Shown here: positions 3,078 through 61,715 of the stretch, in pieces
Position numbering within the stretch: position 1 is the first letter of the stretch
How the letters are laid out: every line of letters begins with the position of its first letter
Assembly (NCBI RefSeq): GCF_001677475.2
Contig: NZ_CP015229.1
Origin: Escherichia coli
GTDB lineage: Bacteria > Pseudomonadota > Gammaproteobacteria > Enterobacterales > Enterobacteriaceae
Length of the DNA: 64,000 nt
Reading direction: 5' to 3' (one strand)
Translations under genes and position numbers: made by a program
The notes under the pieces: model-generated
Databases searched by the model: none
The model's input: only the letters and a program-made list of their open reading frames with translations
What the model was told of the DNA's origin: nothing

Positions 3078-5027
3078 TCAGCAGCGGCTTAAATCAGCCT
3101 GCGCCTGAGCCAGTTTTTCTGCCGCCTGACGTAACGGTTCCATCAACGGCATGGTCCGTGCTGGAGCATGAAGGCGGAATCGCTGCAACTCTGTCGCGCC
3201 GACTGTCAACGCCGATTCCAGCCGATGTCGTTTGGCGGCCATTTTTGCCATTACCGCTTGTCTGTCTGCAGGCGTTATCGCTTCATTCGGCCTGAACACA
3301 AAACGGCGTTCACAGCTCGCTTTCCAGTCGATAACCGCCTGGGTCAGATGGTCGCCAAACCCTTTCACTTGCTTAACACCACGACGGGTAACATCCGCTG
3401 CTGTTTCAATACCAAAGGACCGTAACGCCGCTTTACGCGCAGGGCCAACGCCGGGAATAGAGGCAACATCAATAAAAAATCCCTCCAGAAACTTCTGCTT
3501 CTGCCGTTCCCTTGCAGTGTCATGAAGTGCTGCCAGAGCGCGTTTCTCTTCTTCCGGTAACCCGAGAATTTCGTTCTTCATTTTTTCGAGCATCGTCCGT
3601 TTGGCGATAAAACCTTCCAGCCCGCCCAACTGTTGGATCTGGCTGACTAAATGGTCATAGTCCATTTTTGCGCGATTAAAAGCCTCTCTTCGTCGCTGGA
3701 CTTCTGCTTTGTACGCTTTGCTTGTCAGGCTGCCAATAATCCAGATAGCCGCCAGCACGGGAACCAAAATGATATAACGCGGTTCTACCTGAAGGCCGCA
3801 AAGCAGCAGCGATAATGCTGACAGTGCGATCTCAATCAGAATGATGTATTCACGCCGTAACAGGCCTAAAGGAAGCGGCCTGCCAGTCGGTTGGAAATGA
3901 TCGGGTAATGGTAATTGCAATGCTGGCGGTGCTACTGACGCCATCACCATCGCCCAGACTTTCGCCAGCACAAAATCACCACTGGTGGTAATGACCTCTT
4001 CGCCGAGATCAATAAAATAGATAACGCCTTGATTATCCAGCGCACACCACGGGCAGTCAGTCAAATGACCGGGGTAAACATGCATTGCCGAAACGGTACA
4101 TTTCTTTAACTGTTGGCGTAGTAAATCAAGTGCCGCTACCCACGCTTTTGCCGTCGGACGCGCGGTTGCCACGCCACTTTCCGTGAATGCCTGCTGAAAC
4201 ATGGCTTCAACATCGCCCGGTAACATCGACAGCGGAATAGATCGTGGCGGCGGTTTTAAACCACGCCGCTGATTATCTGACGCGTAGGCATAACGGAAAT
4301 GAGCAATATCCGTCTCCAGCGCATTCCCCGCATCAGAGATAAGCGGTACACCGGAATAAGGATGCCGACCACCAAACAAGACGTGAAAAATCAGCAACGC
4401 AAGGCCAAAATTATCGTGATTCGCGGTGCGTTCAAAGCCGACAAATGATGGCAATGTTTGCAGCTCTGGCGGCGTAAAATGCGACACGCCGACTTCGCAT
4501 AAATGCAGCGTGCCATTGGCGTTAATCTGAAAGGAGTCGCTATCAATCAACACCACTTTGCTGTCGCGACCTACCATAAAGCTGTTCTGGTTTACGTCCC
4601 CCACGACGTGCCCGTGCTCGTGAACCGTAGCAAAAGATGAAGCAATATTGCGCGCAACATAGAGTAGAAAATCCCACGCACAATGAGGGTAACTCTGGCG
4701 ACGATGTGCCGGGCTATAGATCATATGAATCGGTTCTTTACCAGAAACTTTTGGCATCATAAAACCGATAACTTTTCCGCCTCGTCCACCGTGAAGCGTT
4801 GCCTGCGGCCAGGCGACATAATTCAGCAACTGCGCGTCAGCTGTCGCAGCCATAAAGGCAAGTTTGTCCTGTTTTAATGCGGGTGGCGGCGTGTGATAAA
4901 TCTTGGCGACGCTATCGACAAACTCCTCGATATCATAAACCGCGCCTTCGCCACCTTTGCCCAGTTCACGGCCTGGCGTAACGCACTCACCAGTAGCAGT
5001 ATATAAAGTGTGTTTCATGGTAACCAC
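3078..5027 (-). CDS. yegI: Atypical Ser/Thr protein kinase with predicted TM hairpin and C-terminal helix-hairpin-helix region
   Basis: 649-aa ORF; Gly-rich GKGGEGAVY, VAKIY lysine, HVVGDVNQNSF catalytic-loop-like and DSDSF (DFG-like) motifs; hydrophobic stretch ~aa 395-440; VASIPGVGPARKAAL HhH-like motif. Confidence 0.8.
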   Translation of the reverse strand: MVTMKHTLYTATGECVTPGRELGKGGEGAVYDIEEFVDSVAKIYHTPPPALKQDKLAFMAATADAQLLNYVAWPQATLHGGRGGKVIGFMMPKVSGKEPIHMIYSPAHRRQSYPHCAWDFLLYVARNIASSFATVHEHGHVVGDVNQNSFMVGRDSKVVLIDSDSFQINANGTLHLCEVGVSHFTPPELQTLPSFVGFERTANHDNFGLALLIFHVLFGGRHPYSGVPLISDAGNALETDIAHFRYAYASDNQRRGLKPPPRSIPLSMLPGDVEAMFQQAFTESGVATARPTAKAWVAALDLLRQQLKKCTVSAMHVYPGHLTDCPWCALDNQGVIYFIDLGEEVITTSGDFVLAKVWAMVMASVAPPALQLPLPDHFQPTGRPLPLGLLRREYIILIEIALSALSLLLCGLQVEPRYIILVPVLAAIWIIGSLTSKAYKAEVQRRREAFNRAKMDYDHLVSQIQQLGGLEGFIAKRTMLEKMKNEILGLPEEEKRALAALHDTARERQKQKFLEGFFIDVASIPGVGPARKAALRSFGIETAADVTRRGVKQVKGFGDHLTQAVIDWKASCERRFVFRPNEAITPADRQAVMAKMAAKRHRLESALTVGATELQRFRLHAPARTMPLMEPLRQAAEKLAQAQADLSRC

Positions 5028-6432: not shown

Positions 6433-6613
6433 AAGAAATCCTTTCTTAGAGAATTATTGAGGTCCGGTATCATACCGATTGCAATAATGAAATAAGAGCA
6501 AACGAAGAAACTTTCAGAATTAGTCCCGGCGGCGCAGAAAATTTTGCTATTCGCCTCGCAAGAACGGAGAGCCGTCGATTGACACTAAGGGCGGAGTGAC
6601 ATAATTTCAGGAG

Positions 6614-6758
6614 TGAGGGTTAGGGAGAGGTTTCCCCCTCCCCCTGGTGTTCTTAGTAAGCCTGGAAGCTAATCACTAAGAGTATCACCAGTATGATGAC
6701 GTGCTTCATCATAACCCTTTCCTTATTAAAAGCCCTCTTCTCCGGGAGAGGCTTTCCC
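6614..6758 (+). ncRNA. sibA: Sib antitoxin sRNA antisense to ibs copy 1 (ends approximate)
   Basis: Sigma70-like promoter TTGACA (6579-6584), 17-nt spacer, TAATTT (6602-6607) on the plus strand; imperfect GC-rich hairpin plus short T-run at ~6731-6758; fully antisense to the ibs ORF. Confidence 0.6.
6653..6712 (-). CDS. ibsA: Ibs type I toxin, 19 aa (MMKHVIILVILLVISFQAY)
   Basis: Reverse complement of 6653..6712 translates to MMKHVIILVILLVISFQAY plus TAA; this matches the IbsA peptide as I recall it. Below the 60-aa track cutoff. Confidence 0.8.
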   Translation of the reverse strand: MMKHVIILVILLVISFQAY

Positions 6759-6948
6759 GTTTCAGCGTCCCGCTGAAATCGTCGGCTTACCTCCTTTCGC
6801 CCTGAATGCAGTCTATCGCTAACGCGTGAACAAAATAGTTTCCTCTGTGATTATTGCGTAACGACTCGCAAAGAATATTTGCTGGCAGGATCGCAGACTG
6901 CAAAGCCTGCAGATTGACAATCTTATCGTGAAGGCATACTTTCAGGAG

Positions 6949-7092
6949 TGAGGGTAGAGCGGGGGTTCCCCCGCCCTGGTAGTCTTAGTAAGCCGGGAAG
7001 CTTATGACTAAGAGCACCACGATGATGATCCACTTCATCATGACCCTTTCCTTATTTAAGGCCCCTTCCTCGGGAGGGGCTTTCCCGTTTCA
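6949..7092 (+). ncRNA. sibB: Sib antitoxin sRNA antisense to ibs copy 2 (ends approximate)
   Basis: Promoter TTGACA (6914-6919), 17 nt, TACTTT (6937-6942); hairpin gcccct/aggggc at ~7061-7080 followed by cttt. Confidence 0.6.
6985..7041 (-). CDS. ibsB: Ibs type I toxin, 18 aa (MMKWIIIVVLLVISFPAY)
   Basis: Reverse complement translates to MMKWIIIVVLLVISFPAY plus TAA; close to IbsB as I recall it. Confidence 0.75.
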   Translation of the reverse strand: MMKWIIIVVLLVISFPAY

Positions 7093-7276
7093 GCGTCCCG
7101 CTGAAATCATCGGCTTACCTCCTTTCGCCCTGAATGCAGTCTATCGCTGACTTGCGGATAAAATAGTTTCACATGTGATTATTGCGTAGCGTCTCGCAAA
7201 GAATATTTGCTGGCAGGATCGCAGACTGCAAAGCCTGCAGATTGACAATCTTATCGTGAAGGCATACTTTCAGGAG

Positions 7277-7416
7277 TGAGGGTAGAGCGGGGTTTCCCCC
7301 GCCCTGGTAGTCTTAGTAAGCTGGCCAGCTAATGACTAAGAGCACCACGATGATGAGTATCTTCATCATGACCCTTTCCTTATTTAAGACCCCTTCCTCG
7401 GGAGGGGCTTTCCCGT
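7277..7416 (+). ncRNA. Sib antitoxin sRNA antisense to ibs copy 3 (ends approximate)
   Basis: Promoter TTGACA (7242-7247), 17 nt, TACTTT (7265-7270); hairpin ccccttcctcgggagggg at ~7390-7408 followed by ctttcccgttt. Confidence 0.55.
7313..7369 (-). CDS. Ibs type I toxin, 18 aa (MMKILIIVVLLVISWPAY), third copy
   Basis: Reverse complement translates to MMKILIIVVLLVISWPAY plus TAA. Confidence 0.75.
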   Translation of the reverse strand: MMKILIIVVLLVISWPAY

Positions 7417-20711: not shown

Positions 20712-20745
20712 TACAGCTGCATTTATTAAGGTTATCATCCGTTTC

Positions 20746-20832
20746 GCTGAAAAACATAACCCATAAAATGCTAGCTGTACCAGGAACCACCTCCTTAGCC
20801 TGTGTAATCTCCCTTACACGGGCTTATTTTTT
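20746..20832 (+). ncRNA. cyaR: CyaR (RyeE) Hfq-dependent sRNA
   Basis: gctgaaaaacataacccataaaatgctagctgtaccaggaaccacctccttagcctgtgtaatctcccttacacgggcttatttttt matches the CyaR sequence as I recall it, including the terminal hairpin and U-tail. Confidence 0.85.
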
Positions 20833-29285: not shown

Positions 29286-29432
<147 letters not shown>

Positions 29433-37239: not shown

Positions 37240-37400
37240 CCTGCCATAACGTGAAGAAGCAATGACCTGGTGGTCCGTGACTTCCCTACGCTGGCATTAT
37301 CCAGATCAGGTGATACGGGTATTTCTCAGCCTTCACGCAGAAGGGCACCCCGAGTCGTTTGGTTGCGATGATAAATCGCAGAGGAGGATGGTAATGTCCA
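37240..37400 (-). promoter_or_regulatory. TPP (THI-box) riboswitch in the thiM leader
   Basis: Minus-strand sequence ...ggggtgcccttctgcgtgaaggctgagaaatacccgtatcacctgatctggataatgccagcgtagggaag... matches the thiM TPP aptamer (CUGAGA and conserved helices), at ~37281-37357. Confidence 0.85.
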
Positions 37401-59730: not shown

Positions 59731-60051
59731 ATGATCGTGCAAAAAGAGCTGGTCACTATTTACGATTATGAGGCCCCTGTACCTGAAGAGCCGTTTTCCT
59801 TCAGGCTTGAGATCCATAAACGCTCTGAATTATTTACAGGTTCCGTCTATCGACTGGAACGATTCCGGCTACGTCCAACATTTCATCAACGTGATCGAGA
59901 AGATGTCGACCCGCTAATAAATGATGCGTTGATTTATATAAGAGATGAGTTTATTGATGAGCGAAAATTACGAGGTGAATCACCTGAAACTGTAATAGCA
60001 ATTTTTAATCGCGAACTACAAAATATATTCAACCAACAAATAGAAAAATAG
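59731..60051 (+). CDS. yehK: Small protein YehK
   Basis: 106-aa ORF; position after yehI matches the gene order as I recall it. Confidence 0.7.
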   Translation: MIVQKELVTIYDYEAPVPEEPFSFRLEIHKRSELFTGSVYRLERFRLRPTFHQRDREDVDPLINDALIYIRDEFIDERKLRGESPETVIAIFNRELQNIFNQQIEK

Positions 60052-60104
60052 CTTTATTAAAGGGGGAAACGGTATTCCCCCTTAGATGCGTTTCAATTTG
60101 CCCG

Positions 60105-60194
60105 TTACTTCAACAAATCAATCAACCGTAACAGAGCCACTAATAGCTCCAGTACAGCAATGAGCACGGTTAACTTTTGTGTCAGCGTGTCCAT
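60105..60194 (-). CDS. Candidate 29-aa hydrophobic/amphipathic peptide (MDTLTQKLTVLIAVLELLVALLRLIDLLK)
   Basis: Minus-strand ATG at 60194 preceded by AAGGAG with 5-nt spacing; 29 codons then TAA. Not in the track (below 60 aa). Composition resembles small membrane peptides and type I toxins. Confidence 0.4.
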   Translation of the reverse strand: MDTLTQKLTVLIAVLELLVALLRLIDLLK

Positions 60195-60490
60195 CCGCTC
60201 TCCTTATTAAGGAGCGCAATACCAGCACCTTACCCTTACACTGCCTGTCGATACTGGTTTACGTATGTTGGACCACGATGTTGCACTCCGGATCAGGGCA
60301 CCACCTGCAGCACCACCCGTCCGGTAGCCAGGACTTAAAATTGGTCCGATCCGGCGCAACGTCCCAACCGTCTGGATTATAAATCTCATTATCTTAATTG
60401 CAACGGGGTCCACCGATGGTTATAATTCGTTCGTTGGAACACGATGTTGCACAGGCTGCGGTGTTGGGCCTGAAAATAGTAAATAAAAGA

Positions 60491-60516
60491 ACCTGCCTCA
60501 CCAGCAGGTTTTTTTA
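60491..60516 (+). terminator. Rho-independent terminator on the plus strand upstream of yehL
   Basis: Stem acctgc/gcaggt with 7-nt loop followed by ttttttt (60510-60516); implies a plus-strand transcript ending here with no annotated gene. Confidence 0.6.
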
Positions 60517-60626
60517 TTTACTGTGATCTGCTTTCCAGATATTTTTCGCTCAAACAACTAATGCGCAAAACATTTATTGCGCGTAAAATATCGTTTATTT
60601 CATTAATACATTTCAGGGATGAATAT

Positions 60627-61715
60627 ATGTCACCGCAGAATAATCATCTGCAGCGTCCGCCTGCCGCTGTGTTATACGCCGATGAACTGGCAAAATTAAA
60701 ACAAAATGATAACGCACCTTGCCCGCCAGGTTGGCAGTTAAGTTTGCCTGCGGCCCGCGCTTTTATCCTTGGCGACGAAGCGCAAAATATTAGCCGTAAA
60801 GTCGTGATCAGTCCCTCCGCTGTCGAACGCATGTTAGTCACTCTCGCTACCGGGCGCGGTTTGATGTTGGTGGGGGAACCTGGCACCGCAAAATCTCTCC
60901 TGTCTGAATTACTGGCGACCGCTATTAGCGGCGATGCCGGGTTAACCATCCAGGGCGGCGCATCTACCACCGAAGATCAAATCAAGTACGGCTGGAACTA
61001 CGCCCTGCTTATCAACCATGGTCCGTCAACGGAAGCGCTGGTCCCTGCCCCGCTTTACCAGGGAATGCGCGACGGCAAAATTGTCCGTTTTGAAGAGATA
61101 ACGCGTACACCGCTGGAAGTACAAGACTGTCTGTTAGGTATGCTTTCTGACAGGGTAATGACGGTGCCGGAACTCACTGGTGAAGCCAGTCAGCTCTATG
61201 CGCGGGAAGGCTTTAATATTATTGCCACTGCCAATACCCGCGATCGCGGCGTCAATGAAATGAGTGCTGCGCTAAAGCGTCGCTTCGATTTTGAAACTGT
61301 CTTTCCGATTATGGATTTCGCCCAGGAGCTGGAACTGGTCGCCAGTGCTTCCGCGCGTTTGCTGGCCCATAGCGGTATTCCGCATAAAGTGCCTGACGCG
61401 GTACTGGAATTACTGGTGCGCACGTTCCGCGATCTGCGTGCCAACGGCGAAAAGAAAACGTCAATGGATACACTGACAGCGATTATGTCCACCGCTGAAG
61501 CCGTTAACGTGGCCCATGCTGTGGGTGTCCGCGCCTGGTTTTTAGCGAATCGCGCGGGGGAGCCTGCCGACCTGGTGGATTGTATTGCCGGAACCATCGT
61601 CAAAGATAACGAAGAAGATCGCGCGCGTCTGCGCCGTTACTTCGAACAGCGCGTCGCCACACATAAAGAAGCTCACTGGCAGGCTTATTATCAAGCTCGC
61701 CACCGCCTGCCGTGA
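60627..61715 (+). CDS. yehL: AAA+ ATPase (MoxR-like)
   Basis: Track ORF 60561..61715; ATG at 60627 gives 362 aa starting MSPQNNHLQRPPAAVLYADELAKL; Walker A LVGEPGTAKS. Confidence 0.8.
   Translation: MSPQNNHLQRPPAAVLYADELAKLKQNDNAPCPPGWQLSLPAARAFILGDEAQNISRKVVISPSAVERMLVTLATGRGLMLVGEPGTAKSLLSELLATAISGDAGLTIQGGASTTEDQIKYGWNYALLINHGPSTEALVPAPLYQGMRDGKIVRFEEITRTPLEVQDCLLGMLSDRVMTVPELTGEASQLYAREGFNIIATANTRDRGVNEMSAALKRRFDFETVFPIMDFAQELELVASASARLLAHSGIPHKVPDAVLELLVRTFRDLRANGEKKTSMDTLTAIMSTAEAVNVAHAVGVRAWFLANRAGEPADLVDCIAGTIVKDNEEDRARLRRYFEQRVATHKEAHWQAYYQARHRLP

Follow-up and report, generated by a model that had tools for sequence, protein, structure and literature searches.

The region at positions 60105-60516 of the 64-kb stretch of E. 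coli chromosome that we analysed (hereafter, the window) is, with a probability that we put at roughly 95%, a single-copy zor/orz type I toxin-antitoxin module located in the intergenic region between yehK and yehL. An earlier sequence-only reading of this DNA had suggested that an sRNA and an adjacent small ORF might form a type I toxin-antitoxin-like unit, and this idea was borne out by a full-length match of the sRNA to the Rfam OrzO-P family and by the identification of the small ORF as ZorO. The description of the element as "unannotated" holds for the genome annotation (RefSeq), but not for the literature or for Rfam. The element is not a new one, and is already known in detail: zor/orz was found in 2010, its mechanism was described in 2014 and 2017, 2,212 E. 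coli assemblies were surveyed for it in 2024, and it has an Rfam family of its own. In EDL933, the strain of its discovery, two tandem pairs (Z3289/sRNA-1 and Z3290/sRNA-2) are located between yehI and yehL (PMC2887945). The module studied here is flanked by yehK and yehL, has the same yehK-yehL site and the same divergent layout as in O157:H7, and shares 97% DNA identity with the yehL-proximal copy of that strain. Moreover, the published coordinates of zorO, including the 174-nt UTR, the RBS, the region exposed after processing (EAP), the sRNA target, and the sizes of the mRNA and sRNA, all agree with the window, give or take a few nucleotides. The locus belongs to the single-pair class, and combines P-type RNA elements with a ZorO protein sequence.

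The antitoxin is an sRNA of ~84 nt encoded on the plus strand (60433..60516). Rfam model RF02083 (OrzO-P) matches 60440-60515 (+) over its entire length (model positions 1-76 of 76) with a score of 101.3 bits, compared with a gathering threshold of 60, and an E-value of 2.6e-17; the match was repeated with an Rfam scan of the whole window. A second OrzO-P match of 25 bits on the reverse strand was rejected as a sub-threshold echo of the terminator. The predicted +1 of the sRNA is the G at 60433, 6 nt past the -10 hexamer, which places the V1 motif (+9..+11) on ACG. V1 is ACG in OrzP and GAA in OrzO (PMC3919570), and judged from this motif the sRNA in the window is of the OrzP type. It differs from the OrzP copy of O157:H7 at two positions (60459 and 60466), both in the central part of the sRNA. 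The homologues in O157:H7 EDL933 were detected as ~85-nt sRNAs by northern blot, and their starts were mapped by primer extension (PMC2887945).

The toxin ORF (60105..60194, minus strand) encodes a hydrophobic peptide of 29 amino acids, MDTLTQKLTVLIAVLELLVALLRLIDLLK, that is identical to the product of the yehK-proximal (zorO) copy of O157:H7. ZorP is defined by a T3S change relative to ZorO (PMC11264685), and the toxin in the window is therefore ZorO, given that it has Thr3; this sequence is the dominant protein variant, accounting for 72.5% of zor ORFs (PMC11264685). With a transcription start site predicted at 60368, the zor 5' UTR (60195..60368, minus strand) is 174 nt long, which equals the published length. 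The same start site puts the published RBS (+164..+169) on AAGGAG (60200..60205, minus strand), and the EAP (+73..+102; 60267..60296, minus strand, by coordinate transfer from PMC5397157), which may be a standby site for ribosomes, has one copy of the repeat described below as its 3' end. The EAP region carries the conserved GGAGUG motif. The zor mRNA has a GC-rich hairpin at its 3' end (60060..60083, minus strand), common to zor and the convergent yehK, with a folding energy of -16 kcal/mol on either strand. This hairpin gives predicted mRNAs of ~309 nt (full-length) and ~281 nt (processed), compared with published sizes of ~310 and ~280 nt.

The feature that had drawn attention to the region was a 20-nt direct repeat with one mismatch, and both copies are indeed present on the plus strand, where they had been reported: copy 1, GTTGGACCACGATGTTGCAC, at 60267-60286, and copy 2, GTTGGAACACGATGTTGCAC, at 60433-60452, with a single difference at position 7. 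The copies are 166 bp apart, and the similarity extends to 25 nt at 88% identity (60262-60286 / 60428-60452). They are the only two matches at ≤3 mismatches in the 64-kb window, and two matches were found in none of 100 dinucleotide-preserving shuffles (mean of 0.01). The plus-strand sRNA contains copy 2 only, as its first 20 nt, which constitute the 5' pairing domain of Orz. The sRNA target within the zor 5' UTR on the minus strand is the reverse complement of copy 1, and corresponds to +83..+102 of the toxin mRNA, 73-92 nt 5' of the ATG; for the EDL933 genes, the complementarity was reported at 72-92 nt 5' of the toxin start codon (PMC2887945). That the repeats are direct in the DNA follows from the divergent transcription of an sRNA that has to base-pair with the mRNA. 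The first 28 nt of the zor mRNA (60341..60368, minus strand) also appear to be a degenerate third, inverted copy of the repeat, as GUUGGGACGUUGC begins like Orz GUUGGAACACGAUGUUGC.

Earlier, it had been proposed that the pairing of the sRNA with the mRNA of the small ORF be predicted. When this was done, 19 of the 20 positions paired in register at +83..+102 of the toxin leader, with a ΔG of -30.8 kcal/mol. The geometry is 6(1)13, that is, six pairs, an A·G mismatch at +7, and 13 pairs; 17 of the first 18 positions are paired. A whole-molecule prediction (RNAduplex, whole sRNA vs whole leader) gave -65.7 kcal/mol, compared with -47.5 ± 4.5 for shuffles, and was dropped as uninformative, since it represented a spurious long duplex; in-register comparisons of the 20-mers were used instead. 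The A·G mismatch (60439 / 60273 in the window) was kept in every P-type pair that we saw, including that of O157:H7 (1715/1881) and those of two other Escherichia species (12698/12864 in locus L017; L036). It leaves 13 continuous pairs, fewer than the 15 continuous pairs published as sufficient, so that repression by the P type would depend on a second published rule, which asks for 17 or more discontinuous pairs and allows a single internal mismatch (PMC3919570). The natural 6(1)13 pairing satisfies this rule, and its geometry matches that of an engineered 6(1)11 mutant of OrzO, which fully repressed zorO (PMC3919570).

The module is widespread in E. coli. A 511-nt query (60050-60560) had matches in 5,232 of 5,426 complete E. 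coli genomes. In 3,392 of the matching genomes the query is covered to 80% or more, and many of the others match it on the orz side only, at positions ~286-511. According to the published survey, ~30% of strains are orz-only, 25% have one pair, and 42% have two pairs (PMC11264685). DH5α provides an example of the first class: what is left in this strain (1003-1182) is orz with its promoter, plus ~30 nt from the zor leader, with a score of 99.9 bits for OrzO-P; the toxin and target are lost, and the deletion junction lies directly after yehK. Together, the query coverage pattern and the DH5α remnant reproduce the published distribution. Outside of E. coli, the P-type pair, its +7 mismatch included, is unchanged in E. 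whittamii and Escherichia sp. MOD1-EC7003, and the O type is present in E. whittamii and Escherichia sp. E1V33. We also scanned contigs with the pattern AGAACCTGC-N7-GCAGGTTTTTTT, which proved too generic (38 loci) and, being an exact-match pattern, cannot show absence elsewhere; among these 38 loci, OrzO-P was found in three Escherichia loci only. The remaining loci were mostly unrelated terminators (Flavobacteriia, Chitinophaga, and others), and those in Rahnella and Gilliamella were tRNA/RtT terminators.

An alternative view is that the module no longer works as a toxin-antitoxin system in the strain studied here, and that Orz has been kept for another role, as might be the case in the ~30% of E. 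coli that are orz-only. In favor of such a view, K-12 expresses a conserved orphan OrzP, and OrzPmg of MG1655 was confirmed by northern blot (both PMC11264685), the orz-only remnant was confirmed in DH5α, and the pairing in the window is interrupted at +7. However, the toxin ORF, the RBS, both promoters, the leader, and 19 of the 20 pairing positions are intact in the window, and are conserved across Escherichia species. We therefore consider it very unlikely that the module has decayed.

The promoters bear on the extent of the plus-strand transcript. A consensus scan of 59900-60700 identified exactly two promoter-like sites, which are divergent. The orz -10 hexamer TATAAT is located at 60421..60426 (+) and the zor -10 hexamer, also TATAAT, at 60376..60381 (-). 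Both promoters use a common, palindromic -35 hexamer, TTGCAA (60398..60403, both strands), with spacers of 17 nt for orz (+) and 16 nt for zor (-). The hexamers are as in EDL933 (PMC11264685, Table 3), and the TTGCAA/TATAAT combination is found in >99% of zor/orz loci (PMC11264685). As a single TTGCAA serves as the -35 element for both zor and orz, occupancy of the two promoters by RNA polymerase may be mutually exclusive. Both putative transcription start sites (60433, +, and 60368, -) were placed by promoter spacing and homology. The sRNA (60433-60516, +) and the mRNA (60368..~60060, -) that would result do not overlap, and are 64 nt apart.

The sequence-only reading had placed a candidate plus-strand transcript with both repeats at 60200-60516. 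Such an RNA of ~300 nt would be cis-antisense to the toxin leader. Some read-through into the region is conceivable, as the hairpin at the 3' end of yehK (60060-60083) has no T-run on the plus strand. Yet the only plus-strand promoter-like site in 59900-60700 lies 6 nt 5' of 60433, and probes to the homologous coding sequence and UTRs detected no antisense RNA, only the ~85-nt sRNAs (PMC2887945). We give very little credence to the longer transcript; the zor/orz assignment reduces the plus-strand RNA to ~84 nt (60433-60516) and leaves copy 1 of the repeat in the 5' UTR of the minus-strand mRNA.

A further suggestion had been that covariation of the repeats be analyzed in related genomes, and when this was done both copies were found to change together. 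We compared four variant types, namely the O and P types of O157:H7, the type represented by PEC178 copy 1, and that of FDAARGOS_1267. Cognate combinations of all four types give 19/20 in-register pairs at about -30 kcal/mol each. When partners of different types are combined, 15-18 positions pair, with energies of -14 to -25 kcal/mol. There is one exception: the targets of FDAARGOS_1267 and PEC178 copy 1 are identical, and each scores 19/20 with the sRNA of the other. The types differ from one another at positions 5, 6, 9, 10, and 11, where the change affects both copies. In the PEC178 copy 1 and FDAARGOS_1267 types, too, position 7 is left without a pair (A·A or G·A), and it is paired in the O type only. 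Where cognate copies differ by a transition, the difference is in the direction compatible with G·U pairing in four out of four cases.

These data also speak to the idea, put forward as an alternative to an sRNA, that the repeats are DNA sites for a transcription factor regulating the intergenic region or yehL. Two near-identical 20-mers located 166 bp apart in a promoter-rich intergenic region would be consistent with a pair of regulator binding sites. Nevertheless, the first nucleotide of copy 2 is the predicted +1 of an Rfam-verified sRNA, and copy 1 falls within the sRNA-binding region that was probed experimentally in the homologous mRNA. In addition, the differences between cognate copies obey RNA-pairing rules, since the G·U-compatible transitions among them keep the RNA pairing, but not the DNA identity, and the covarying copies fit RNA-RNA pairing rather than a shared DNA-binding site. 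Compensatory mutagenesis has demonstrated RNA-RNA pairing (PMC3919570), and K-12 strains keep one copy only, yet still express the sRNA (PMC11264685). Binding sites for a regulator thus seem to us barely credible, and we favor the zor/orz reading of the repeats as an sRNA 5' domain and its mRNA target.

A strong plus-strand terminator had been reported ~110 nt before yehL, and was found as described. The rho-independent terminator of orz (60490..60516, +) was recognized by its inverted repeat, the conserved 3' helix of the Rfam family, and RNAfold. Its stem is formed by AACCTGC/GCAGGTT (60490-60496 / 60504-60510) and closes a loop of 7 nt; a run of seven T's comes next, ending at 60516-60517. 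The hairpin has a predicted energy of -22.9 kcal/mol (RNAfold). The ATG of yehL is at 60627, 111 nt past 60516. A simple consensus terminator scan listed the orz terminator on the minus strand only. The plus-strand call was presumably missed since the A/T-extended stem uses up the T-run, and it was the Rfam helix, together with the inverted repeat and RNAfold, that led us to accept the plus-strand terminator. Across 60478-60522, an A-run and a T-run flank the terminator (AGTAAATAAAAG...CTTTTTTTATTTACT), because of which the extended Orz hairpin comprises 19 bp and reads as a terminator on both strands. A separate 16-nt inverted repeat (60538-60553 / 60577-60592; 88% complementary with a 23-nt spacer) is located between the Orz terminator and yehL. 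It is accompanied by a minus-strand terminator-like site (60582..60563), and the repeat is conserved in K-12 and O157:H7.

That the hairpin and U-run might constitute a leader or attenuator of yehL, rather than the end of an independent sRNA, has in its favor that the terminator lies 111 nt 5' of yehL on the same strand and that there are weak Rfam matches to the Thr leader (26.3 bits) and Trp leader (21.7 bits), but we find it hardly tenable, as these matches are far below their gathering thresholds (55 and 41) and rest on the generic terminator helix, two-copy strains have an identical terminator after the first orz copy, ~720 nt upstream of yehL, and the OrzO-P model fits the whole length of the sRNA.

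How the module is thought to operate comes from studies of zorO/orzO of EDL933. Overproduction of ZorO arrests growth and OrzO rescues it (PMC3919570); the rescue requires RNase III, while Hfq is dispensable (PMC3919570). The first 18 nt of OrzO are enough for repression (PMC3919570), V1 sets the specificity, and compensatory mutations restore repression (PMC3919570). The full-length zorO leader hinders translation (PMC5397157). Removal of the first 28 nt, which takes place by processing in the published model and was shown for zorO (PMC5397157), opens +73..+102, the EAP, as a putative standby site, and the RBS stays unfreed (PMC5397157). OrzO binds the EAP at its 3' end, and also blocks translation (PMC5397157). 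For the P type, toxicity of Z3290 and expression of sRNA-2 have been shown (PMC2887945). In the papers that we consulted, the demonstrated repression is that of the O pair, and we found no direct OrzP-on-zorP rescue experiment; by analogy, we infer that the P-type pair of this strain would act like the O pair of EDL933.

Partition-function folding of the leader in the window is broadly in line with this scheme. In the full-length leader, +1..+27 is predicted to pair with +66..+102 at probabilities that are mostly 0.6-1.0, and for the mRNA 5' end, GUUGGGACGUUGC, pairing with +85..+102, the site that Orz also uses, is predicted at probabilities of up to 1.0. The RBS is predicted to be sequestered in a stem, with an unpaired probability of 0.07 for the full-length mRNA and of 0.08 for the Δ28 mRNA. 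Upon removal of the first 28 nt, the mean unpaired probability of the EAP in the thermodynamic model rises from 0.30 to 0.39, and that of the target from 0.35 to 0.45. The accessibility model thereby reproduces only weakly the published opening of the EAP after the loss of 28 nt.

The module would, accordingly to the published scheme, work as follows. Divergent promoters with a common -35 element would direct leftward transcription of the ~309-nt mRNA, consisting of a structured 174-nt leader and the coding sequence of the membrane toxin ZorO, and rightward transcription of the ~84-nt OrzP-type sRNA, which would end at the terminator at 60516. The toxin RBS would always be sequestered, and the first 28 nt of the mRNA itself would mask the EAP at +73..+102. 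Loss of these 28 nt would expose the EAP, which is probably a ribosome standby site, and translation would be boosted. Pairing of Orz at the EAP's 3' end would block this boost and trigger RNase III-dependent decay, so that the toxin is off. The 5' end of the toxin mRNA would thus be a built-in mimic of the antitoxin, masking in cis what Orz masks in trans.

One of the closest known systems is zorP/orzP of EDL933 (Z3290/sRNA-2, yehL-proximal), which has the same site, 20-nt target, sRNA 5' domain, +7 mismatch, V1 (ACG), promoter hexamers, and terminator, with about 97% identity over 508 nt. It differs in having Ser3 where the window has Thr3, in two sRNA substitutions, and in being in tandem, whereas the module in the window is single-copy. 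The zorO/orzO pair (Z3289/sRNA-1) shares an identical 29-aa toxin, the architecture, the 174-nt leader, the positions of the RBS and EAP, and the Rfam family, but differs at pairing positions 6 and 9-11 in both partners, its V1 being GAA, compared with ACG here, and it forms 18 continuous pairs rather than 6(1)13. OrzP does not repress zorO (PMC3919570), and in our comparison the OrzP-zorO combination pairs at 16 of the 20 positions in register, at -17.2 kcal/mol. OrzPmg of K-12 MG1655 is found at the same site and has 96.9% identity to 60338-60560, with orz and its promoter retained along with ~30 nt from the zor leader; K-12 has neither the toxin ORF nor the target site, whereas the window has both.

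More distant parallels are provided by tisB/istR-1, shoB/ohsC, and dinQ/agrB, in which a divergently encoded sRNA pairs through a 5' domain of 18-21 nt with a target far 5' of a sequestered RBS, and 5' processing activates the mRNA following the same standby-site logic (PMC5397157). Their toxins and chromosomal sites are different, no sequence relationship was detected, and none of these sRNA families had an Rfam match in the region. The cis-antisense systems hok/sok, ldr/rdl, and ibs/sib differ in that the antitoxin overlaps the toxin; here, there is no overlap, and the complementarity is confined to the 20-nt repeat.

One such cis-antisense family is present elsewhere in the window, where it constitutes a second type I family. 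Three tandem Sib RNAs on the plus strand match Rfam RF00113 at 6579-6727 (149.5 bits), 6914-7056 (137.8 bits), and 7242-7384 (139.3 bits), and each has an intact Ibs ORF of 18-19 amino acids on the minus strand (MMKHVIILVILLVISFQAY, MMKWIIIVVLLVISFPAY, and MMKILIIVVLLVISWPAY). K-12 has two Sib copies at the locus corresponding to this array (6579-7384). Other RNA elements that scored above their Rfam gathering thresholds are the CyaR sRNA at 20744-20829 (+; 100.7 bits), naRNA4 at 29341-29411 (-; 65.7 bits), and a TPP riboswitch at 37266-37362 (-; 71.2 bits). With regard to the genes around zor/orz, RefSeq flags yehK as frameshifted in FDAARGOS_1267 (680-996) and BroCaecum-55 (851-1236), and yehM as having an internal stop in the O157:H7 strain (3174-3508). 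These flags suggest that, in some lineages, the genes on either side of zor/orz undergo decay.

In six out of six related genomes that we opened, RefSeq has no gene annotated between yehK and yehL, and both the toxin ORF and the sRNA are without RefSeq/PGAP annotation in every genome inspected. When the 29-aa toxin was compared with the Pfam and NCBIfam models, no family was found; the lack of a Zor model in these collections explains why the toxin is missing from the annotation. As a consequence of the blank in RefSeq/PGAP and the missing model, readers working from sequence only will keep "rediscovering" zor/orz. The case further shows what can give away a type I module of the divergently encoded kind: a short intergenic direct repeat located next to an orphan terminator and a very small hydrophobic ORF. 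Finally, it is conceivable that the +7 mismatch is under selection, tuning repression or blocking cross-talk, and that the OrzP-type sRNA has, in addition, a second role beyond zor. We consider this combined proposal doubtful at present, but if it were true, a second role of OrzP would explain why the orphan sRNA has been retained in about a third of E. coli.
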